From: Clostridia bacterium
GTDB lineage: Bacteria; Bacillota; Clostridia; Christensenellales; Aristaeellaceae
Length of the DNA stretch: 30,988 nucleotides
Assembly (NCBI GenBank): GCA_030526225.1
Contig: JAUNDF010000019.1
Location: forward strand, 1-30,988
Direction of reading: 5' to 3'
Below, piece after piece: positions 1,036 through 25,136 of this stretch. Within the stretch, counting starts at the first letter, position 1; each line of letters opens with the position of its first letter. The position numbers were made by a program, and so were the translations under genes. The notes beneath the pieces were generated by a model that did not search any database, was not told the DNA's origin, and worked only from the letters and a program-made list of their open reading frames with translations.

Positions 1036-2433
1036 TTAATGAATCACCTTGGTGGCATAGCCGTGGGCATCGGCGAAGCGGGCGGCGACAGTATCGGGGC
1101 CGTCGACCAGCACCAGCAGCTTGCTGCTGCAGCCGGTGAAGGCGGAAGCATCAATGCTCGTTACGCTTTGCGGGATGTAGATGCGGGTCATGGTGCTGTT
1201 CATGAAGGCACGGGCGCCGATGGTCTTCAGCGAGCGGGGCAGACGGATGTATTCGGCGCTGGCTTTGGCAAAGGCTTCAGCCTCGATGGCGGTGATGCCG
1301 TCGGGGATGGTCATCGGCTTGCCGCAGATTCTGCTGCCGGTGACATAGATGATATCGCTCCAGCCGTACAGCACGGACAAATCCCAAACGCCGCTGCTCA
1401 GCTCGATTTCATCCTGACTGTTGATGCAGTAGGTAATCATTTCACGCCGGATGATTTCACGCGCCGCAGGGCCGGGGAGCCCTGCAAGGGACACCCTGCC
1501 GGAGCCCTGCAGTGCATCTGCGATGCGGGGCTCCAGGAAGCTGACCCAGGCAGCCGCCGCGCCGCTCTTTATGTAATAGTTGCAGGCCATGCCATCGGCG
1601 GCGGTGAAATTGTGACCGTAGTGGTCATCGCGCATGATGCTGTCGGGGATAAAGCAGTAATCGTAGGTGCAGTAGCCCAGGGGAGCACCCTTGCCCGCAG
1701 GCGCGTAGCCGGGGCAGTCCCAGGTGACATCCGCCTCGTACCAGTCACCCTCCAGCTCCAGCGCATTCCATGCGTGGGACTGGGCATCGGAGGTTACCAC
1801 ACGGGCATCGATGCCCGCGGCCTAAAGCAAATCAAGGTAGGCGATGGCGAAGCTTTGGCACACACCGAAGCCGCGGAACAAAAGCACATCCGCCCCGTGA
1901 TAGACCAGCGTGGAATCGTAATAGGAGTTCTTTGCCAGATACTCGTACAGGTACAGCGCCTTTTCGTAATCGCTGCTGCCGCTGCAGCCGGCCACCAGCT
2001 GCTTTGCCTTGGCGGCCACATAATCGTAGCCTGTCACATTCAGGTAGCAGTAGGCATAATCATAGCCTTCAATCTGGGCGACCAGCAGATAACGCCCGGG
2101 CTGATAAAAGCGGTAGTTGAATTTGGTTACATCGTTGCAGTAAACAACCTGATAGTAATCAGACCAGTCAACCTGCACTGCCAGCAGCATGGTGTGGGTA
2201 TAGCCGGGGAAGCTGTAGGCCGATTGGATGCTGACTGCCTGCCCGGTGGTCAGCTTGCCGGTGATGACAAAATCAGCCGCACTCTTTTGCTGGATTTCAT
2301 CCGTTGAAAAGGCAAAGGTGCCCGGCTCGCCCTCGGGCAATACCTGCAAAAAGCCGGGATTGCCGTCGGCCAAAGCCGTGGGCAGCAGGAACAGGACAAG
2401 CAGCAACAGCACAAGCGCGGCAAGTTTTTTCAT
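1036..2433 (-). CDS. Secreted transglutaminase-like cysteine protease with C-terminal LRR (BspA-like) repeats; contains one in-frame TAG (plus-strand CTA at 1822-1824)
   Basis: ORFs 1822..2487 and 1036..1800 share one frame, separated by TAG plus 7 sense codons. Signal peptide MKKLAALVLLLLVLFLLPTALA, with RBS GGAGG 7 nt upstream of ATG 2433. The catalytic Cys (GFGVCQSFA) lies upstream of the TAG. His and Asp (SHAWNALE...DVTWD) lie downstream. The C-terminus has repeats of the form IPDGITAIEAEAF / LPRSLKTIGARAF / IPQSVTSIDASAF. TAA stop. Confidence 0.6.
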
Positions 2434-5487: not shown

Positions 5488-5524
5488 AAAACAGGGACTG
5501 TGAATCATTTTCACAGCCCCTGTT
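5488..5524 (-). terminator. Rho-independent terminator (repeat copy B, inverted relative to copy A) downstream of the zinc-ribbon gene
   Basis: Minus strand reads ACAGGGGCTGTGAAAATGATTCACAGTCCCTGTTTTTCATC. The hairpin core is the same as copy A and is followed by a T-tract. Confidence 0.6.
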
Positions 5525-5526
5525 GC

Positions 5527-6579
5527 TTATCTCCCCTGATACGGTACGTCGTTGATGCTGTCCAGCCGGCCGCCCTTGAAGGTCAGCTTCACCGCATCGC
5601 CTACCTTGAAGGATTGCCACTGCTCCAGGGGCAGGGTGGCTGTGTAGGTCTTGTTGTTCTTGTCGGCGAAGGTAACGGTGTACAGCTCCTCGCGGCCGCC
5701 CTCGCGCTGTTTGTTGGTCAGGGTGAATTCGCCCCACTTGGGCTCATCATCCTTGCCGGCGGTCTTGATGACATCGGCTTGCAGCCAGCGGTCAATTTCG
5801 TAGGTGTACTGGGTTTTATAGATGGGCTCATCCCGGTAGACGGGCTGCTTTTCGCGCTCGGTGTAGTACTCGGTCTTGTACCGGGGCGTTTTGACCTCCT
5901 TGGAGGTAAAGGTACCGTCACCGTTGTTGACGTACTGGGTGGAGGTGTCATAGCCATCCTGAACCTGACGGCTCTTTTTGACGGTGACATACTCGTAGTG
6001 GTCCACCACCTTTTCGTAGTGGTGGATGGCCTGACTGGTTTTGATGAGCCTTGCCCCCTCGGGCAGCTGCCAGTCCGCCTCGGTGACGGTGGTGTATTCC
6101 TCAATGCTGACGGCACGGGCCCATGCCTTTTCCAGCACGGTGGTGTCGGCGTTTTTGGGAATCAGGTTGATGACCAGGGCGATGACCAGCACGGCCAGCA
6201 GCAGCAGGGGCCACCAGCGCTTTTTCTTCGGGGCCGGGGCGGGCTGCATGGCGGCGGCCTTGGCGGCAGCCTTGGCTTTCAGCTTTTCCTCGTTGGTGAA
6301 ATAATCGTCCTTGCTGTCGGTTTTGGCACTGCCGCAGTTGGTGCAGTAGGCGGCGGTGATGCGGTTCATGGTGCCGCAGTTGGCGCAGAGCCAGTCGGCG
6401 CCCTGTCCGTACTTGGCGGCGGTATCATCATCCAGGAAGGCGTTTTTCTCCTCCGGCAGATAGAATACCGTGTTCTCATGCTGGGGCTTGCCGCAGCCCG
6501 GGCAGGATTTGGTCAGGCCGCCGATGCCCTTATTGCCGCAAAAGGGGCAGTCCCACAAGGCTTCAATCTTTTTGCTCAT
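5527..6579 (-). CDS. Membrane protein with two N-terminal zinc ribbons, one TM helix and a Tyr/Thr/Lys-rich extracytoplasmic domain; function unknown
   Basis: CPFCG-x12-CPGCG and CANCG-x10-CTNCG motifs. A basic stretch KKKRWW is followed by the TM segment PLLLLAVLVIALVINLI. RBS GGAGAG lies 6 nt upstream of the ATG at 6579. TAA stop. Confidence 0.65.
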   Translation of the reverse strand: MSKKIEALWDCPFCGNKGIGGLTKSCPGCGKPQHENTVFYLPEEKNAFLDDDTAAKYGQGADWLCANCGTMNRITAAYCTNCGSAKTDSKDDYFTNEEKLKAKAAAKAAAMQPAPAPKKKRWWPLLLLAVLVIALVINLIPKNADTTVLEKAWARAVSIEEYTTVTEADWQLPEGARLIKTSQAIHHYEKVVDHYEYVTVKKSRQVQDGYDTSTQYVNNGDGTFTSKEVKTPRYKTEYYTEREKQPVYRDEPIYKTQYTYEIDRWLQADVIKTAGKDDEPKWGEFTLTNKQREGGREELYTVTFADKNNKTYTATLPLEQWQSFKVGDAVKLTFKGGRLDSINDVPYQGR

Positions 6580-6632
6580 ATGCATCTCTCCGTATTGACA
6601 ATAATCATGGGGAACGCCGGTTCACTACTATT

Positions 6633-6661
6633 ATCATACAACAAATATTGGAAAATTGCAA
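6633..6661 (-). promoter_or_regulatory. Candidate sigma-A promoter for the zinc-ribbon gene
   Basis: Minus strand reads TTGCAA-N17-TATGAT (plus-strand TTGCAA at 6656-6661 and ATCATA at 6633-6638). Confidence 0.4.
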
Positions 6662-6676
6662 AGAAAAATGCAGCGG

Positions 6677-6705
6677 TTGCACATAGGCCTGATTTTTGGT
6701 ATACT
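6677..6705 (+). promoter_or_regulatory. Candidate sigma-A promoter for the orphan SBP / kinase / regulator operon
   Basis: TTGCAC (6677-6682), a 17-nt spacer, then TATACT (6700-6705). It sits about 45 nt upstream of ATG 6751. Confidence 0.45.
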
Positions 6706-6750
6706 ATATCCATCTATGTACAATTTGGCACAATCGGGAGTGAAAACAAC

Positions 6751-7725
6751 ATGAAAAAAATTTCAGCGCTGCTGATGCTCATCTGTGCTGCCCTGCTGCT
6801 GTGTGCCTGCACCGGGGAAAAACCTGCAGCGGAGGAAGCCGCGCCTATCGTCATCGGCTTTTCCCAGCTGGGTTCGGAAAGCAGCTGGCGCATCGGCAAC
6901 ACCAAGGACATGACCGAGGCAGCCGAGCGCGCGGGCATCACCATGATGCTGAAGGATGGCCGCCAGAAGCAGGAAAACCAGATTGCCGCCATCCGCGAAT
7001 TCATCGCCCACAGGGTGGATGTGATTGTGTTTTCCCCCATCGTGGAGGATGGCTGGGACAATGTTCTCAGGGAGGCAAAGCAGGCGGGCATTCCGGTGCT
7101 GCTGATTGACCGCATTATCCAGACCACCGATGACAGCCTGTACGCCGGGTGTATCGGCGCTGATTTTTATCTGGAGGGGCGCAACGCCGGTGAATATCTG
7201 CTGAAAAAGGCGGATGCCATGGGCGCGAAGGAGCTGCACGTGGTGGAAATCACCGGCACGGAGGACTCCACCCCCATGCGCCAGCGCATGAAGGGCTTCC
7301 ACAGCGTGGTGGACGGTGACAGCCGCATCGTGACATTGGAATCGGTCAACGGCGATTTCCTCCGTTCACGCGGGCGGGAGTGCATGGAATATCTGCTGAA
7401 GAAGTACGACGGGGAAATCGATGTGGTCTACTCCCACAACGATTCCATGACCCTTGGCGCCATTGAGGCGCTGGAGGCAGCCGGAGTCAAGCCGGGGCAG
7501 GATGTGATTATCATCACCGTGGACGGCGAACAGGCGGCCATCGACCTGCTGAAGGAGGGCAAAATCAACTGCGTGGTGGAATGCACCCCCATGCTGGGCG
7601 ATGAGGTGATGCGCCTTTGCACCAAATTGGCCGGCGGCGAAAAAATCGTGAAGCTGACCCATCCCGTGGAGCAGGTGTTTACCGATTTTGATGACCTGAC
7701 ACAGATTGGCCCCCGTGGCTACTGA
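6751..7725 (+). CDS. Lipoprotein sugar-binding protein (periplasmic-binding-protein type I, YtfQ/RbsB-like), probably the sensor partner of the adjacent kinase
   Basis: Lipobox LLLCAC in MKKISALLMLICAALLLCACTG. PBP fold motifs IVIGFSQLGSESSWR, VDVIVFSP, AGIPVLLIDR and VVYSHNDSMTLGAIEAL. RBS GGGAG is upstream. No adjacent permease; it is followed directly by the kinase and regulator. The ORF-track N-terminal extension from 5500 is antisense shadow. TGA stop. Confidence 0.8.
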   Translation: MKKISALLMLICAALLLCACTGEKPAAEEAAPIVIGFSQLGSESSWRIGNTKDMTEAAERAGITMMLKDGRQKQENQIAAIREFIAHRVDVIVFSPIVEDGWDNVLREAKQAGIPVLLIDRIIQTTDDSLYAGCIGADFYLEGRNAGEYLLKKADAMGAKELHVVEITGTEDSTPMRQRMKGFHSVVDGDSRIVTLESVNGDFLRSRGRECMEYLLKKYDGEIDVVYSHNDSMTLGAIEALEAAGVKPGQDVIIITVDGEQAAIDLLKEGKINCVVECTPMLGDEVMRLCTKLAGGEKIVKLTHPVEQVFTDFDDLTQIGPRGY

Positions 7726-7750
7726 TGCAGGGCGGAGCGATGAGATTGTG

Positions 7751-9232
7751 ATGAACAAGCGCGAAAAGACAAGGAGCATGGGCAGTCAGCTGCTGCAGTT
7801 TTCCCGATTGCTGACGGTGGTGCTGGCGGTGCCGGCGGTTATCAGTCTTGTGATGATGCTGGTGTCCAGCTCCATCTACCACCACACCCTCAGCCAGATG
7901 GAGCGGGTGGCCCAGCTGCAGCCGGTTATCAAGACAGACATTCCGGAGGCGGTGTGGTATGCCGTGGCCGGACGCACCTCCTTTGAGGAGGGCAATGTGT
8001 GGGGCATGGTGCGGCAGGTGACGGACACGCTGGATGACATGATTCTGGCGGATGAGAGCGAGGGCCTGTCCCTGACCATCGCCCGGCGCACCATGGATAC
8101 CATGGCCGGGTATATCACGCAGATTGAGACAGAGATGGCCAACCGCATGCCCGTGGTGGAGCTGTAGAGCATGGTGGAGGAGGTCCGCAGCGTGGGTGCG
8201 CTGGTGGAATCCATCCTGCAGGAATACATTACCGGCTCCATCGGGTCGGCGGCAACCATCAACAACGGCCTGCGCAAGCAGACCATGGTGTTTGCGGCGG
8301 TGGAAATCCTGCTGCTGATTGTGGCCTCCGTGGCGGCACAGCGCAACCGCAAGCGGCTGATGAATCAGCTGCTGAACCCCATTGAAAATGTGGAAAACTT
8401 TACGGCACAGGTGGCCGGCGGCGATTTATCAGCACCGCGGCTGCCCAAAGCAGAAATGACCGAGCTGGTGCCGCTGACGGAATCCATCAACTCCATGGCC
8501 GACCGGCTGGAATCGCTGTTCGGGCAAATCAAGCGGGAGCAGGACAACCTGCGCAAGGCAGAGCTTCGGACACTGCAGGCGCAGATTAACCCGCACTTCC
8601 TTTATAATACGCTGGATGCCATTGTGTGGCAGGCGGAGGAGGGCCGCAATGATGAGGTCATCCGCACCACCCGCGCCCTCAGTGACTTTTTCCGCATTTC
8701 CCTGTCCTCCGGCGATGACTGGATTCCCGTATCGCAATAGCTGCAGCACCTGTCGGGCTATCTGCTCATCCAGCGCACCCGCTACCGGGATATCCTCCGC
8801 TACGAAATCGATGTGGATGAAAAAATGCAGGACCTGATGATTTTGAAGCTTCTGCTCCAGCCGCTGGTGGAAAATGCGCTGTACCACGGCATCAAGTTCA
8901 AGCGGGGCGGCGGCACCATCCGGGTGGAGGGGAGGCTGGAGGATGACCACATGGTCTTCCGGGTCACCGATACAGGCAAGGGCATGCCCCCATAGCGGCT
9001 GAAGGCCGTGGTGGACAGCATGCACGGCGAGGCACCGCCCCTGACGGCAGAGTTTGCCCAGGGCGGCTCCGGATTCGGGCTTCGCAACGTAAACCAGCGC
9101 ATCAAGCTGTACTACCGGCAGCAGGAAGGGCTGCAGATTGAAAGCGGAAGCGGCGGCACCGCCGTGACCTTCCGCGTACCTGTTTTAAGAAAGGGGGAGA
9201 CCGACCGTGGTGAAGGTATTTCTGGTGGATGA
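7751..9232 (+). CDS. YesM/LytS-type sensor histidine kinase (TM - sensor - HAMP - His_kinase - HATPase_c) containing three in-frame TAG codons (8165-8167, 8738-8740, 8993-8995)
   Basis: Four ORF pieces (7706.., 8171.., 8813.., 9008..) share one frame and are separated only by TAG. H-box region QAQINPHFLYNTLDAI, N-box LLLQPLVENALYHGIK, G1 VTDTGKGM and G2 GGSGFGLRNVNQRI are all intact. The start is uncertain (ATG 7751 chosen). The TGA stop at 9230-9232 overlaps the regulator start by 26 nt. Confidence 0.7.
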
Positions 9233-10775
9233 CGAAATCGTTTTCCGGGAGGGTGTGCGCAACTCCTTCCCCTGGGATGAAAGCGGCTATACCCTGGTCG
9301 GCGAGGCCCCGGACGGCGAAATCGCCCTGACCATGATCCGCGACCAGAACCCGGACATCATCGTCACCGACATCCGCATGCCCTTTATGGACGGGCTGCA
9401 GCTGTGCGCCGAAATCCGCCGCATCATGCCCTGGGCGGGCATCATCATCCTCTCCGGATACGATGATTTCACCTACGCCCGCAAGGCCATGGCCATGGGG
9501 GTGCAGGAGTATCTGCTCAAGCCCGTGAACGTCACCGAGCTGCGGGATGCGCTGGACCGGGTGTACGGCCGCATGCAGGAGGAAAAGCGCCTGCGGGAAA
9601 ATGCCCGGGGCATCCGGGAAAGAATGGGTGCCAACAACCGCTTTGTCAAGGACAAGCTGCTCTTTGCATTGCTGGCAGACGAGCTGGATGAAAAAAGCGC
9701 CGCCACCATGATTGAGCAGCTGCGGAAAATCGGCATCAATCTGTTTGCCCAGCGCTATGCGGTGCTGGATATCTCCTTTGAGCAAAACGAAAACCAGACA
9801 AGGGACAAGGCCATGGATGTGCTGTACTCCCTGTCCGATGCGTCCTCTGGGGCGGCTATGGTCTGCACGGGCAAAAAGGGCGCGCTGGCCATTATCCTTG
9901 GGGACAGCGATGCGGATACGGAGGAGCGGGCCTACGGCTTTGCGGATTCCGCCGTGAAGGCGCTGGAGGAAAGCGGCTTCCGGCGGGTGCTGGTGACGGT
10001 GGGGGACACCGTGACCCGGCTGACGGAGCTGCCCGCAAGCATGAAGGCCGCCCGTCATCTGCGCCATCTGCACACCCTTGGCGAGCAGACAGAGCTGCGG
10101 GTGGTGGGCAGCCGGGACATCGGCAGTGCCCCGGAGAAAAAACGGCAGATGACCATTCGTCCCCTGCATGAGCAGATTCAGTATATCAGCGCCTCCCAGC
10201 TGGATTCCCTGTTCGACAGCTATGTGCAGTCACTGGATGCGGGGGATTTGCACGCCTATGTGGTCAGCGATTACCTGCAGGTGGAGGCTATGCTGACGGC
10301 CAACCGCATCGTGCTGGATGCCGGCGGCGACCCCGAGCAGGTACTGGGCAGCAAGGAAAGCATGTCCTTCGGCGATCACGATTTTGCCGCCGCCCGGGGC
10401 CTCCTGCGAAAGGCCATCGAGTACCGCGACAAAAACGCCACCCACAAGACCAACCCGGCCATCGCCCGGGCAAGAAGCTACATGTCCCAGCATTTTCAGG
10501 ACCCGAACCTGATGCTGCAGGATGTGGCCGACCATGTGGGCATGTCCTCCAGCCGCTTTTCCACCGTGTTTTCGCAGGAGACGGGCTACACCTTCACCGA
10601 ATACCTCACCGAGCTGCGCCTGAGCAAGGCCAAGGAGCTGCTCCGCGCCACCCAGCTGCGCTCTCACCAAATCTGCGAGATGGTGGGCTACAACGACCCC
10701 CACTACTTCAGCTACCTGTTCCGCAAAAACACCGGCGTCACTCCCAGCGAGTACAGAAGGGCAGAGAAGGGGTGA
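9207..10775 (+). CDS. YesN-type response regulator (REC domain + C-terminal AraC/XylS HTH)
   Basis: REC motifs VFLVDDE, DIIVTDIRMPFMDG, ILSGYDDF and YLLKP. The C-terminal AraC HTH is MLQDVADHVGMSSSRFSTVFSQETGYTFTEYL...GYNDPHYFSYLFRKNTGVTPSEYR. GTG start with RBS GGGGGAG 7 nt upstream. TGA stop. Confidence 0.88.
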   Translation: MVKVFLVDDEIVFREGVRNSFPWDESGYTLVGEAPDGEIALTMIRDQNPDIIVTDIRMPFMDGLQLCAEIRRIMPWAGIIILSGYDDFTYARKAMAMGVQEYLLKPVNVTELRDALDRVYGRMQEEKRLRENARGIRERMGANNRFVKDKLLFALLADELDEKSAATMIEQLRKIGINLFAQRYAVLDISFEQNENQTRDKAMDVLYSLSDASSGAAMVCTGKKGALAIILGDSDADTEERAYGFADSAVKALEESGFRRVLVTVGDTVTRLTELPASMKAARHLRHLHTLGEQTELRVVGSRDIGSAPEKKRQMTIRPLHEQIQYISASQLDSLFDSYVQSLDAGDLHAYVVSDYLQVEAMLTANRIVLDAGGDPEQVLGSKESMSFGDHDFAAARGLLRKAIEYRDKNATHKTNPAIARARSYMSQHFQDPNLMLQDVADHVGMSSSRFSTVFSQETGYTFTEYLTELRLSKAKELLRATQLRSHQICEMVGYNDPHYFSYLFRKNTGVTPSEYRRAEKG

Positions 10776-11044: not shown

Positions 11045-11973
11045 ATGAAGAAACTGTTTGCTGTCGCTATGGCGCTGGTCCTGGCATTGAGCCTGTGTGT
11101 GACCGCTATGGCCGATACCATCACCGTTGGTATCGTCAACAATCCCCCTTCCGAATCCGGTTACCGTGAAGCCAACGTAAAGGATTTTGAGCGCGTGTTC
11201 TGCGAAGACAACGGCTACACCGCCAAGACCGCTTACAGCCTGAAGAACGACGAGCAGCTGAGCGCCGCTCAGCAGTTCATCACCGACGGCGTTGATTACC
11301 TGCTGGTATCCGCCGCTGAAACCACCGGTTGGGACGTTGTGCTGGCAGCTGCTCAGGAAGCCGGCATCCCCGTGTTCCTGTTCGACCGCACCATCGATTG
11401 CGACGACAGCCTGTATGAGGCAGCTGTTGTTTCCGACATGCGCAATGGCTGAAGGGCCTGGGCCTGGACTCCTACAAGATCGTGCACATTCAGGGCGCTA
11501 TGGGCTCCGACGCTCAGATCGGCCGTACCAATCCCCTGACCGAGCAGGTTGCTGCTGACGATGCCTGGACCCTGGTTGTGGAACAGACCGCTACCTGGGA
11601 CGAAGCTGAAGCCAAGAAGATTACCGAGTCCGTCATCAACTCCGGCGAACCCTTCAACATCATCTACGCTGAAAACGACGGCATGGCACGCGGTGCTGTT
11701 GCTGCTCTGGACGAAGCCGGCATCACCCACGGCAAGGACGGCGACGTGATCGTGATGGGCTTTGACTGCAACACCTGGGCTCTGGAAGAAGTGCTCAAGG
11801 GCGCTTGGAACTATGATGGTCAGTGCTCTCCCTTCCAGGCTGATGTCATCGACGGCATGATCAAGAAGCTGGAAGCCGGCGAAACCCTGACCGAGAAGAA
11901 GATCATCTCCGAAGAAAAGGGCTTCGACTGCAACACCATCACCGCTGAAGACGTGGCCAACTACGGCATCTAA
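11045..11973 (+). pseudogene. YtfQ-like ABC transporter sugar-binding protein, disrupted by a frameshift near 11440-11452
   Basis: Signal peptide MKKLFAVAMALVLALSLCVTAMA, with RBS GGAGG 8 nt upstream. The N-terminal half is in frame 2 and ends at TGA 11450-11452. The C-terminal half (AQWLKGLGLDSYKIVHIQGAMGSDAQIGRT...) continues in frame 1, which is open from 11419. It is a paralog of the SBP at 6751-7725. TAA stop at 11971-11973. Confidence 0.75.
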
Positions 11974-18296: not shown

Positions 18297-20414
18297 ATGA
18301 ATAATGAAGCAATCCGTCAGCGGGTGGAAGCACTGCTGGCGCAGATGACATTGGAGGAAAAGGTGGCCCAGCTGGTGCAGGTGCCCTATGCCCATAACGG
18401 CCGTGAGGAAAGCTTGCGCTGGGCAAAGATGGGTGCAGGCTCCTTCCTGCATATTCTGGGGGATGATGCCCGGGAGGTGCAGCAGACGGCGCTGCAGTCC
18501 CGACTGGGGATTCCGGTGATTTTCGGCATCGATGCCATCCATGGCCACGGCCTGAACCCCAACGCCACCATCTTCCCCAGCCAGCTGGCCTGTGCCTGCA
18601 GCTGGGATGCGGATACGGCGCGCACCATGGGCAGGGATACCGCCCGGGAGGTGGCCACCGACGGCCTGCACTGGACCTTTTCGCCGGTGCTGTGTCTGGG
18701 CCGTGATACACGCTGGGGCCGCATTGACGAGACCTTCGGCGAGGATCCGTATCTGGCGGCTGAGCTGGGCGCGGCCATTATCGAAGGGTATCAGGGCGAT
18801 GACCTGAGCGATGACGAGCATATTCTGGCCTGTGCCAAGCACTACCTTGGCTACGGCGAAGCCACCGGCGCCCGGGATGCCGTGGATACGGAATGCACCG
18901 AGCGCAAGATTCGCGAGGTGTTTCTGCCGCCCTTCAAACGGGCGGTGGAGGCGGGCTGTGCCACCATCATGACGGCATACGGAGCCATCGACGGTACGCC
19001 TTTGACATCCAATAAGCGCATGCTCAAGGACATCCTCCGGGATGAGCTGGGCTTTGACGGCTTCGTGGTTACCGACTGGGACAACGCGGCCTCTTTGGTG
19101 ACCAATCAGCACACGGCGGCAGACCTGAAGGAAGCCTCCCGGCAGGCGGCCGAGGCGGGCAACGACATGATGATGACTACCCTGGGCTTTTATGAGCATG
19201 CGGTGCAGGCCGTGCGGGAGGGAAGCCTTGACGAGGGCGTGATTGATGATGCTGTGCGCCATATCCTGACCATCAAATGCCGCATGGGCTTGTTTGAAAA
19301 GTGCGAAAAGACCGGCAGACCCGGCTGCATCGGCTGTGAGGAGCACCGCATGGATGCCCTGAATGCTGCCCGAAAGAGCGTAACGCTGCTGCGCAACAGC
19401 GGCATCCTGCCCCTGAAGGATGTAAAGAAGCTGGCTGTGGTGGGTGCCAATGCGGATGATATCCGTGCCCAGTACGGCGACTGGACCTACTTCACCCATC
19501 CCATTGCGGATGAGAACCGTCCGGCTGTGCGCCCCTATGTCACGCTGAAGGAAGGGCTGGTACAGATTTGCGCTGACAAGGGCATCGAAATGGTATATGC
19601 CCGTGGCTGCGGACCCATCGCAGATGACAGGGATGACATCCCCGCGGCACTGGCGGCGGCTGAGGGTGCCGATGCAGTGGTGCTGTGCGTGGGCGATACA
19701 TGGGCCCAGCATGGCGAAACAAAGGACAGAGCCAACCTGACCCTGTCCGGCAGACAGCTGGCGCTGTATCGGGCGCTGAAGCAGCAGGGGCACAAGGTTA
19801 TCACGGTGCTGGTGGCCTCCAAGCCCCTGTGCATGGAGGAGGCGGCATAGGCCGATGCGGTGCTGTGCGGCTTTAACGGCGGCATGTACGGCGGTCAGGC
19901 GCTGGCAGAGGCCATCTTCGGCATCATCAATCCGGAGGGACGGCTGCCCATCACCTTCCCGCGTCATTCCGGTCAGCTGCCGGTGTACTACAATCAGCTC
20001 CCCGGCTGGCATGGCGGCAAATACTGCGATTTGCCCGAAACGCCCCTGTTCGCCTTTGGCGAGGGCATGGGCTATGCACCCTTCCGCTACGACAGCGCGG
20101 CCTTTGACAAGGACACCATGACCGTGCAGGTGCAGCTGACCAACACCGGCGACATCCCCGGCACGGAAACCGTGCAGGTGTATGTGCACGATGTGGTTTC
20201 CAGCGTAATGCAGCCGGTGAAGCGGCTGGTGAAGTTTGCCAAGGTTACGCTGGCTGCGGGGGAAACGAAGACCGTCTCCCTGCCCCTGACCATGGAGGAC
20301 TTCTCCCTTGTCAACGCTGCCTGTCAGCGCGTGGTTGAGCCGGGCCTGTTTGAAATCATGGCCGGGCATTCCAGCAAGGACGAGGATTTGCTGAAAACGG
20401 AAGTTGAATGGTAA
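18297..20414 (+). CDS. Glycoside hydrolase family 3 enzyme (beta-glucosidase / beta-xylosidase / arabinofuranosidase type) containing one in-frame TAG (19848-19850)
   Basis: ORFs 18234..19850 and 19860..20414 share one frame, separated by TAG plus 3 sense codons. RBS GGGAGGA lies upstream of ATG 18297. GH3 motifs present are FGIDAIHG, KHYLGYG, nucleophile region GFDGFVVTDWD, PLCMEEAA[TAG]ADAVLCGFNGGMYGGQALAEAIFG..NPEGRLPITFP, and a C-terminal Fn3-like domain (VQVQLTNTGDIPGTETVQVYV). TAA stop. Confidence 0.75.
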
Positions 20415-21099: not shown

Positions 21100-22407
21100 A
21101 TGATTCGCATGGAAATTGCGCTGCTTCTGGTGCTGTTGTTTGTGGCGTTCAACTACTTCACGGCATGGAAAAAGCAGACACCCCTGCATGCCACCTTTGC
21201 GGTGCTGCTGGTAACGGCCATCTACCATGTGGCGCTGGATGGCATCAGCGTGTACACGGTGGCGCGGCTGGATACCATCCCCCTGTGGATAAACGATCTG
21301 GTGCACCGGTTCTTTATCGGCACCATGATTCTGGTGGTCTATCTGTTTTATCAGTACATCTCCACTTTGGTGGAGGATGAAACGGGCAAGCCGTCCCCAA
21401 GGCTGAACGCCTTTGCCAGAATCTACCTGATGATGGCATAGGCCGGGGCGGCTTTCCTGCCGGTGCACTACGCGGTCACGCCTTTGGGCAACTACTCCGA
21501 CGGCATTCATGCCATGAGCTGCTACGTGCATGTCAGCTTTTATCTGGTGCTGTGCGTGATTATGCTGGCGGTGAACTGGAAGCAGATTTCCGTCAAAAAG
21601 CGGAATGTCATCGGCTCGGCCATGGCCATTGAGATGATTATTTCGCTGCTGCAGTCCTTCAACCCCACATGGCTGATTTCCTCCATGGGCATCACCCTGA
21701 TGACACTGGCCTTCTACCTGACGCTGGAAAATCCGGATATCCTTCGCGGCGAGCTGGTGGAGCAGAAGATGTCCATGCTGTACCTGAAAAGTCAGGTCAA
21801 TCCTCATTTCCTGTACAACACATTAGGGGCTATCCGCATTCAGGCAGAGCTTGACGGCGACAAAAAGGTGGCTGATTTGCTGATGCGGCTGGCGGATTTT
21901 TTTCGCATGAGCGTGAAGGTGGACCGGCCCATGGTATAGCTGGAAAGCGAACTGGATATGCTGGATGCGTACATGGATTTGATGTGCTACCGCTATCCGG
22001 AGCTGCACTACGAGTGTGACATCGAGCCGGAGCTGTATGAAGCGGCGGTGCCCAATTTCATCCTCCAGCCCATGGTGGAAAACAGCCTGCTCCACGGCTT
22101 GAAGAACAAGGGCTACCGCGGCACTGTGGCGGTGACGGCCCGGGCAACGGAGCAGGGCATGGAAATCACCGTGAAGGACAACGGCGCGGGCTTTGCCGAA
22201 GGGAAAAAGGCCGCCATCGATGCCATGCTTCGCCACTACGCCAAGCATGCCCCCAAGCTGGAGGGCAACAGCATCGGTGTGCTGAATGTGCAAAAGCGCA
22301 TCAAGCTGCTGTGCGGCAAACAGTACGGCCTCAGCTATACGGAAAACCCTGACGGCGGCGTAACGGCGCATCTGCTGCTGCCGCTGGAAAAGGAGAAGGT
22401 GCAATGA
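21100..22407 (+). CDS. Membrane-embedded YesM/LytS-type sensor histidine kinase (multi-TM N-terminus) containing two in-frame TAG codons (21439-21441, 21937-21939)
   Basis: Three ORF pieces (21100.., 21463.., 21958..) share one frame and are separated only by TAG. H-box region KSQVNPHFLYNTLGAI, N-box ILQPMVENSLLHGLK, G1 VKDNGAGF and the GNSIGVLNVQKRI motif are intact. RBS GAGG. The TGA stop overlaps the regulator start (ATGA). Confidence 0.7.
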
Positions 22408-23796: not shown

Positions 23797-23834
23797 CCCG
23801 CGCATCTCCGAAAATGGGGATGCGCGGGTTTTTA
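23797..23834 (+). terminator. Rho-independent terminator after the PspC operon; overlaps the convergent antiporter stop
   Basis: CCCGCGCATC...GATGCGCGGG stem followed by TTTTTAT. Confidence 0.7.
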
Positions 23835-25010
23835 TGCCTTCTTCAGCAATTTCCGGTATGTGGTATCAATGGCAAAGGCACCAAGCGGTGCGGTGAGGAC
23901 GATGGCCAGCACGGCGGCGGTCAGGACGGTGTCGCCGCAGGCAAGGCCGAGGGCCAGCGGAATGCCGCCGATGGCTGCCTGCACGGTGGCCTTGGGGGTG
24001 TAGGCCAGCATGGTAAACAGGCGCTCACCGGAGGTCAATGGCGTTTTGACCACACACAGCAGCACACCCAGCATGCGGAAAATGAGGGCGAAAACAATCA
24101 GCAGCAGCGCAGGCATGCCCACATGGGTGATATAGCCGATGTTCACCGCTGCGCCCACCAGCACAAACAGGAACACCTCTGCGCCGACCCACAGCTTGCC
24201 ATACTTTGCGCTGATGCGCCCGGCCAGCTCCGGCCTTGATTGCTTCAGCCCGATGCCCGTAAACATCACGGCAATCAGTGCGGAAAAGGTGATGGCCGTC
24301 TGCAGTGAATCCTCGAGGGTGACAAGCAGGAAGGACAGGCTGAGGAGAATCATCACCTTGGCCGTATCCCGGATGTGGAAGCGGGTGAACAGCACCGTCA
24401 TCAGCCGGCCTGCCATCAGCCCGATGATGATGCCCAGCAGGATGGACACGGGGATGTTGACGAACTGCATCACCGATGCGCCCTGTCCCTGCAGCATGCC
24501 CACAAAGGTGGAGAACAGAACGATGACATACACATCATCCACCGAAGCACCGGCGAGAATCAGCTGCGGGATGCCCTCGCGGGTGCCATAGCCTTCGTCC
24601 ATCAGCCGGACCATCCGCGGCACCACCACCGCCGGAGAGACGGCGGCCAGCACGGCGCCCAGCACCGCGGCCTCCTGCAGGGAAAGCCCCAGGAGCAGGG
24701 GACCCAGCAGCATGGTGCCCAACAGCTCCATGGTGGCGGGGACAAAGCACATCATCAGCGCGGGCCGCCCCAGCTTTTTCAGGGCGGACAGGTCAAGCCC
24801 CAGCCCGGCTCTGGTGAGGATGATAATCAGCGCGATTTTTCTCAATTCCGCCGATACAGACAGGATGGATGCATCCAGCAGGTTCAGGGCGCAGGGGCCC
24901 AGCAGAATGCCCGTGGCCAGCATGCCCAGCAGCGGCGGCAGCTTCAAACGGCGGCAGACCCAGCCGGTGAGCATGCCCGGCAGAAGAATCAAGGCGATGG
25001 ATAACAGCAT
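23832..25010 (-). CDS. Cation:proton antiporter (Na+/H+ exchanger family, CPA-type)
   Basis: 392-aa polytopic protein. N-terminal pattern LPPLLGMLATGILLGPCALNLLD, then LIIILTRAGLGLDL and AAVSPAVVVP, typical of Na_H_Exchanger proteins. RBS AGGAGG lies 6 nt upstream. TAA stop. Confidence 0.8.
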   Translation of the reverse strand: MLLSIALILLPGMLTGWVCRRLKLPPLLGMLATGILLGPCALNLLDASILSVSAELRKIALIIILTRAGLGLDLSALKKLGRPALMMCFVPATMELLGTMLLGPLLLGLSLQEAAVLGAVLAAVSPAVVVPRMVRLMDEGYGTREGIPQLILAGASVDDVYVIVLFSTFVGMLQGQGASVMQFVNIPVSILLGIIIGLMAGRLMTVLFTRFHIRDTAKVMILLSLSFLLVTLEDSLQTAITFSALIAVMFTGIGLKQSRPELAGRISAKYGKLWVGAEVFLFVLVGAAVNIGYITHVGMPALLLIVFALIFRMLGVLLCVVKTPLTSGERLFTMLAYTPKATVQAAIGGIPLALGLACGDTVLTAAVLAIVLTAPLGAFAIDTTYRKLLKKA

Positions 25011-25136
25011 GTGGTTCCTCCTTCATGCGCAAAAAAAGCTGGTGCTCCTGCGCAGTCATCGCAGAAGTCATCAGCCTGAAAAAGCGGTTTCGGCAGCAAA
25101 CTGCCGCGGGAGAACTTCATTCCCGTTTGCGGCGAT

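Follow-up and report, generated by a model that had tools for sequence, protein, structure and literature searches.

In a contig of an uncultured Clostridia bacterium (JAUNDF010000019.1, assembly GCA_030526225.1; positions 1 to 30,988, the whole of which was analysed and is called the window here), we found that a gene encoding a YesM/LytS-type sensor histidine kinase, named kinase 1, is interrupted under the standard bacterial code and has an intact frame only when TAG is taken as a sense codon. Judging from the residues that homologs carry at the corresponding positions, TAG is probably decoded as glutamate in this organism, either by reassignment of the code or by efficient natural suppression, and kinase 1 would then be an intact, expressed sensor kinase. 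The gene and its three TAG codons are arranged as follows.

7751 to 9232, plus strand: kinase 1, YesM/LytS-type sensor histidine kinase by Pfam, interrupted in frame by three TAGs and ending in TGA
8165 to 8167, plus strand: TAG 1, in the extracytoplasmic sensor domain, preceded by the codon CTG
8738 to 8740, plus strand: TAG 2, within His_kinase (PF06580), preceded by the rare codon CAA
8993 to 8995, plus strand: TAG 3, within HATPase_c, directly past the G1 box, preceded by the codon CCA

Translation of the 493-codon frame showed exactly three internal stops, all of them TAG, before the terminal TGA, which confirmed the three in-frame TAGs reported in an initial annotation of this DNA as well as the peptide contexts quoted there. 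The His_kinase domain scored 80.9 bits (cut-off 25.2) over residues 270–347 with TAG 2 inside, and the HATPase_c domain (GHKL ATPase) scored 59.9 bits (cut-off 26.4) over residues 366–478 with TAG 3 inside, while HAMP, at 24.5 bits, fell marginally below its 25-bit cut-off. The phospho-acceptor motif QINPHFLYNTL was found in the translation. The ATPase domain has its N and G boxes, and no indel was seen. Kinase 1 further aligned along 6swj_A, the one PDB entry that matched the kinase core strongly, in which the residue opposite both TAG 2 and TAG 3 is Glu. Since TAG 2 and TAG 3 lie inside the two catalytic domains, the pieces between the TAGs are not independent proteins, and the frame is one gene rather than four. 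A split-gene reading was rejected, as the Pfam domains are cut by the TAGs and no start codon follows closely after them. The Logan assembly of run SRR24915835, which is independent but probably derives from the same sample, is 100% identical across 7510–9531 (2,022 bases), all three TAGs included. Exact-protein look-ups with the window proteins returned only two 2-kb Logan contigs, both from SRR24915835.

To compare residues at the TAG sites, kinase 1 was aligned using MAFFT with 120 full-length homologs of 48–56% identity. The column of TAG 1 contained 114 Glu and 6 Gln, that of TAG 2 was Glu in all 120 homologs, and that of TAG 3 contained 84 Glu, 18 Asp, 11 Gln and 7 other residues. Thus, where two of the TAGs had been placed at acidic or amide positions, all three columns proved to be dominated by Glu. 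These counts agree with YesM-type kinases usually having Glu at the TAG 2 site and with relatives commonly having it at the TAG 3 site, and the alignment of TAG 2 with a Glu of the second YesM-type kinase of the window (kinase 2) was correct. Summed over the three columns, the log-odds were +10.9 bits for Glu and −3.1 bits for Gln; of the two residues the initial annotation had left in play, Glu is strongly favoured.

The trait is not confined to kinase 1. All frames of the window were scanned, counting TAA and TGA alone as stops, and genes were assigned by Pfam hits and third-position GC. In this set, 7 in-frame TAGs were present in 4 of about 25 genes, with no in-frame TAA and no in-frame TGA (about 9,400 codons). 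The other three genes are the following.

1036 to 2433, minus strand: transglutaminase-core/BspA-LRR surface protein, with a TAG at 1824–1822 between the catalytic Cys and His/Asp; Transglut_core spans the TAG
18297 to 20414, plus strand: GH3 beta-glucosidase with all three GH3 Pfam domains and a TAG at 19848–19850; Glyco_hydro_3_C spans the TAG
21100 to 22407, plus strand: kinase 2 (YesM-type), with TAGs at 21439–21441 and 21937–21939

Six of the TAGs are on the plus strand and one is on the minus strand. They are rare beside the ordinary Glu codons of the window (7 TAG versus 337 GAG and 239 GAA) and occur mainly in non-housekeeping genes. Kinase 1 and the transglutaminase/LRR gene, at a minimum, are split into separate fragments in the NCBI-derived records of a public protein collection. 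The first TAG of kinase 2 (21439) faces Glu in 118 of 120 homologs. The GH3 TAG faces either a column with 85 Glu among 120 or one with 45 Gln, 30 Thr and 23 Lys, a one-residue gap making its placement ambiguous. The column of the transglutaminase TAG is variable, with Glu as joint commonest residue (22/148), and the homolog closest over the transglutaminase core region has Glu at the site. Altogether, four TAGs lie at columns with 70–100% Glu, one of which is an invariant Glu position in the kinase core. Over all seven TAGs, the summed log-odds for Glu were +9.9 to +17.9 bits, while every other residue was negative, the next best being Gln (−5.1 to −10.3 bits) and Lys-like decoding lying below Gln. 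The GH3 TAG (19843–19853) and the first TAG of kinase 2 (21434–21444) also share the identical 11-mer GGCATAGGCCG, which encodes Ala-TAG-Ala; given the codon usage, this identity is probably due to chance.

The TAG-bearing genes were then assessed for signs of decay, with a conserved column defined as one at least 90% identical among homologs. No indels were found in the four TAG-bearing genes. In kinase 1, the four segments around the TAGs kept 91, 93, 100 and 91% of the conserved residues, and in GH3 the parts before and after the TAG both kept 97%. Mismatches numbered 9 at 162 conserved columns in kinase 1, a count reached or exceeded by 13 of 120 intact homologs, and 11 at 331 columns in GH3, reached or exceeded by 16 of 120. 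The three segments of kinase 2 kept 81, 87 and 84%; the mismatches of kinase 2 are more numerous, but kinase 2 is an outgroup to its homologs, which form a tight clade, so that the comparison is uninformative. For kinase 1, the absence of relaxed constraint downstream of the TAGs supports the earlier view that it is not a dead gene.

We further considered which mutational process could produce such a set of stops. Random substitutions on the codon usage of the window gave TAG in 59% of nonsense events, or 64% with a transition bias, and only 15–22% of the randomly arising TAGs came from GAG, which makes at least four of seven at Glu improbable (P about 0.01–0.05). A G:C-to-T:A process reproduced the Glu/Ser pattern of the columns but yielded TAA or TGA in 62% of cases, and seven TAGs out of seven then had a P of 0.001. 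Neither process fits both the TAG-only and the Glu features. Stops in pseudogenes arise mostly by transitions, and spurious Trp calls have been traced to them (Shulgina and Eddy, PMC8629427); because transitions yield TAG from CAG or TGG, they would mimic Gln or Trp rather than Glu.

The codon context of the TAGs provides another kind of evidence. An A-ending codon precedes five of the seven (CAA, CCA, GCA, GCA and GTA). The codons next to the TAGs include the following.

8735–8737, 8990–8992, 19845–19847, 21436–21438 and 21934–21936, plus strand: codons directly 5' of in-frame TAGs

Only 7% of the codons in the window end in A, and CCA accounts for 6 of its 342 Pro codons. Conditioned on the amino acids before the TAGs, the bias had a Poisson-binomial P of 4e-6, and a hand calculation with C-ending codons excluded gave a P of about 3e-5. 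The remaining two TAGs are preceded by Leu, which is almost without A-ending codons in the window. The tetranucleotide CTAG does not occur in the window, against a Markov expectation of 13.7. Related Clostridia loci avoid it as well (0–2 per 10–20 kb), so CTAG avoidance is a lineage-wide trait, and its absence was dropped as a special feature of this contig. The avoidance explains why C is missing before TAG, not why A is preferred over G. A rare synonymous codon beside TAG suggests selection on a codon that is translated, and mutation alone gives no explanation of it; context-specific mutagenesis from A-GAG to A-TAG was rejected, because it must strike a third of such sites while sparing conserved residues. 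The same bias hints that the efficiency of TAG decoding depends on context, perhaps via residual competition with a release factor.

The 25 terminators comprise 14 TAA and 11 TGA, with no TAG, whereas TAG ends 16 of 114 genes (14%) in GC-matched control loci of related Clostridia. Finding no TAG among 25 terminators had a P of about 0.02, or of up to 0.16 with other control sets.

As to the nature of the contig, its genes include mfd, ftsH, sugar ATP-binding cassette (ABC) transporters, an FGGY kinase and an aldolase, and its GC content is about 59%. Searching a phage collection with the contig gave no match, and no phage genes were present among the window genes. Matches in a plasmid collection were all short and of low coverage; the best was to ftsH of Vescimonas (Oscillospiraceae; 73.5% identity). 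Named homologs of the window proteins belong to Oscillibacter, Onthomonas, Christensenellaceae and unclassified Clostridia, and the contig therefore comes from the chromosome of an uncultured member of the Clostridia, probably near the Oscillospiraceae. When nine window proteins were compared with about 15 billion proteins, no member of another genome was found at 90% identity or above, and each 90% cluster was either a singleton or made up solely of near-identical sequences from this contig and the Logan assembly; FtsH had no entry there. A scan of GTDB representatives with kinase 1 returned no relative, and the best match of the highly conserved DUF1846 protein among the hits returned from those representatives was 72% identical. 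The organism thus appears, on these comparisons, to be without a sequenced close relative. The contigs of the two nearest GH3 relatives are not syntenic, have normal gene calls and look standard-code, and were used as controls only. Neither a match among viral contigs to a 20-base tRNA-Glu(CUA) anticodon-arm pattern nor, in the 31-kb window, the release factor gene prfA was found. Four metagenome matches to the arm pattern were set aside as chance, as ARAGORN calls no tRNA there. One gene of the contig shows a frameshift.

11045 to 11973, plus strand: frameshifted gene for a YtfQ-like substrate-binding protein of an ABC transporter operon, in two frames, with the shift near 11438–11452

The shift appears as a one-base deletion or a two-base insertion, and the gene is either a real pseudogene or carries a consensus error. 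Its truncated product had no entry in the protein collection.

Several observations weigh against decoding of TAG as glutamate. The sample is small, at 31 kb and 7 TAG codons, and no tRNA gene was found in the window. One of the seven sites, the second TAG of kinase 2 (21937), faces a column of 83 Ser, 20 Ala, 14 Thr and 3 Glu among 120 homologs, that is, a Ser/Ala/Thr site. That all seven stops are TAG is in itself only weakly surprising under random nonsense (P about 0.03–0.04), the abundant GAG, CAG and AAG codons making TAG likely anyway. In some Faecalibacterium and Gemmiger loci, too, none of 15 genes ends in TAG, and because such relatives lack them too, the terminator argument is only moderate. 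No relatives sharing the TAG trait were found, which leaves the reading without phylogenetic support, and the frameshifted gene indicates that some decay or sequence error is present on the contig. Finally, no bacterial UAG reassignment is listed by a k-mer screen from 2026 that covered about 2.7 million assemblies.

These observations leave room for other explanations. TAG might formally still be a stop, with the seven sites leaky through an amber-suppressor tRNA or context-driven read-through, which would possibly keep sensor and surface genes at a low level. Competition between decoding and termination would be expected to give the A-ending bias before TAG, the TAGs are confined to non-housekeeping genes, and the lack of TAG among the terminators is only moderately significant. 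Even so, we regard leakiness as unlikely, since there is no TAG terminator at all, truncation at an invariant Glu of a catalytic domain would be wasteful, and kinase 1 would need three successive read-throughs, with a yield equal to the product of three efficiencies. Slightly less likely again is that the four genes are recent pseudogenes of a decaying or mutator genome, such as one with a G:C-to-T:A bias. GAG-to-TAG and TCG-to-TAG are both changes of this kind and match the mostly Glu columns together with the one Ser column; the affected genes are of dispensable types, and one frameshifted gene lies on the same contig. Against decay stand the P of 0.001 for seven TAGs under a G:C-to-T:A process, and the P of 0.01–0.05 for at least four of seven TAGs from GAG under a uniform or transition-biased one. 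Moreover, kinase 1 and GH3 showed no surplus of missense changes at conserved sites and no indel, mutation alone does not account for the rare A-ending codons next to TAG (P 4e-6), TAG terminators are absent, and the stops are all TAG rather than of mixed types.

It is also conceivable, at a very low probability, that the residue encoded by TAG is a different one: pyrrolysine, for which archaea with an all-TAG-Pyl code set the example, or glutamine, which TAG encodes in phage code 15 and in many eukaryotes. Among prokaryotes, no genome-wide reassignment of UAG other than that to Pyl has been reported, while UAG-to-Gln is the commonest outcome elsewhere, and Gln is second-best at several of the columns. 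The column scores speak for Glu (+10 to +18 bits, versus −5 to −10 for Gln and lower for Lys-like decoding), as do the four TAGs at 70–100% Glu columns; the contig has neither phage genes nor a match in the phage collection. For pyrrolysine, the TAGs would be expected in methylamine methyltransferase genes or at sites that are not bound to a standard residue, along with pylTSBCD, but they occur at Glu columns of kinases, a GH3 glycosidase and a transglutaminase-like protein. A sequencing or assembly artefact, with GAG as the true codon, is the least probable of all. A single metagenome-assembled contig of 31,347 bases is the source, the checked proteins are known only from it and in some cases also from Logan, and the frameshift could be such an error. 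The Logan assembly of SRR24915835, however, is identical at the three kinase TAGs, errors are not expected to fall only at in-frame Glu codons after rare A-ending codons, and the events are found on both coding strands.

If TAG is decoded as glutamate, the likely role of kinase 1 may be read from its neighbourhood, in which the flanking genes are the following.

6751 to 7725, plus strand: YtfQ-like lipoprotein sugar binder with Peripla_BP_4 (YtfQ, E 1.5e-71), a start and a signal peptide
9207 to 10775, plus strand: response regulator with REC and AraC HTH domains (Response_reg 92.3 bits, HTH_18 84.2 bits), overlapping the end of kinase 1

The YtfQ-like binder, directly upstream, is probably the ligand-sensing partner of kinase 1, and the REC-AraC regulator is its cognate partner (YesN-type). 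Binding protein, kinase 1 and AraC-type regulator would form a three-part sensor system with the adjacent sugar ABC transporter (ytfQRT/yjfF-like) under its control. Such three-component sugar sensing is known from Clostridium beijerinckii as XylFII-LytS-YesN. The gene order of binder, YesM/LytS-type kinase and REC-AraC regulator beside a CUT2-type sugar ABC transporter is alike, whereas the binders here are YtfQ-like (galactofuranose type) instead of xylose-type, and the kinase here requires TAG decoding for its production. Upstream of kinase 1, a plus-strand open reading frame of 741 codons (5500–7725) is a composite: the genuine plus-strand gene is that of the YtfQ-like lipoprotein from 6751, and the 5' part runs antisense to a genuine zinc-ribbon membrane protein gene (5527–6585, minus strand; third-position GC 0.82). 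Elsewhere in the window, one RNA element was identified.

25055 to 25133, minus strand: fluoride riboswitch (RF01734, 43.9 bits), upstream of a Na_H_Exchanger-family gene (23832–25010, minus strand)

Published surveys report UAG reassignment for phages (Gln), archaea (Pyl) and eukaryotes, and UAG-to-Glu in bacteria is not reported there. Phage code 15, in which TAG is read as Gln with phage-borne suppressor tRNAs, is similar in its in-frame TAGs within otherwise intact genes and in its occurrence in gut- and rumen-type communities; unlike it, the present contig is cellular (mfd, ftsH, sugar operons) and its columns are Glu, not Gln. Glutamate is assigned to UAG or UAR in eukaryotes, namely in peritrich ciliates (table 30) and Blastocrithidia (table 31). 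The change from codon to amino acid is the same there, and is effected by tRNA-Glu with a stop-complementary anticodon, but those codes are nuclear, depend on eRF1 and usually have UAA reassigned as well, while TAA is the commonest terminator here (14/25). For Blastocrithidia, one report gives UAR as Glu (PMC12153298).

Within bacteria, all known code changes reassign UGA (Shulgina and Eddy 2021, PMC8629427). UGA is read as Trp in Mycoplasmatales, in several endosymbionts and in Eggerthellaceae, and as Gly in Absconditabacteria/Gracilibacteria. With the reading proposed here they share a stop turned to sense genome-wide, seen as in-frame stops at conserved sites together with an unused terminator, here within 31 kb only. 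They differ in that the codon here is UAG, the residue is Glu, release factor 1 (RF1) rather than release factor 2 (RF2) is expected to be dispensable, and the genome is GC-rich and looks free-living instead of AT-rich or reduced. For prokaryotes as a whole, the sole UAG case cited by a translation-table predictor of 2026 is the archaeal UAG-to-Pyl code (Kivenson et al., bioRxiv 10.1101/2024.09.30.615893). The archaeal code likewise uses UAG as sense in many ordinary prokaryote genes and is hard to detect, coding density being barely altered under table 11; it inserts Pyl by means of pylT and pylS, unlike the Glu columns here.

Taking the decoding of TAG as glutamate as a basis, we propose the following route. 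A tRNA-Glu with anticodon CUA would be charged by glutamyl-tRNA synthetase (GluRS), and could arise by one base change from the CUC isoacceptor that reads GAG. RF1 would have been lost, weakened or narrowed, leaving RF2 to handle the TAA and TGA terminators. Drift from GAG to TAG would then be nearly neutral and could seed rare TAG-Glu codons, and the preference for an A-ending codon before TAG would reflect decoding that is still dependent on context, for example through residual release factor competition. Given this, we lean slightly towards regarding the organism as the first bacterium in which UAG means Glu, in a GC-rich, non-reduced Clostridia genome, with the A-ending preference marking a context-dependent stage and thus a natural case of the ambiguous-intermediate route.

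If true, this would add a new entry among the genetic codes, and RF1-dependent termination would be abandonable in a bacterium with a normal-sized, GC-rich genome. It would also provide a natural tRNA-Glu(CUA)/GluRS pair of interest for genetic-code engineering, and annotation pipelines would mis-call every lineage of this kind.

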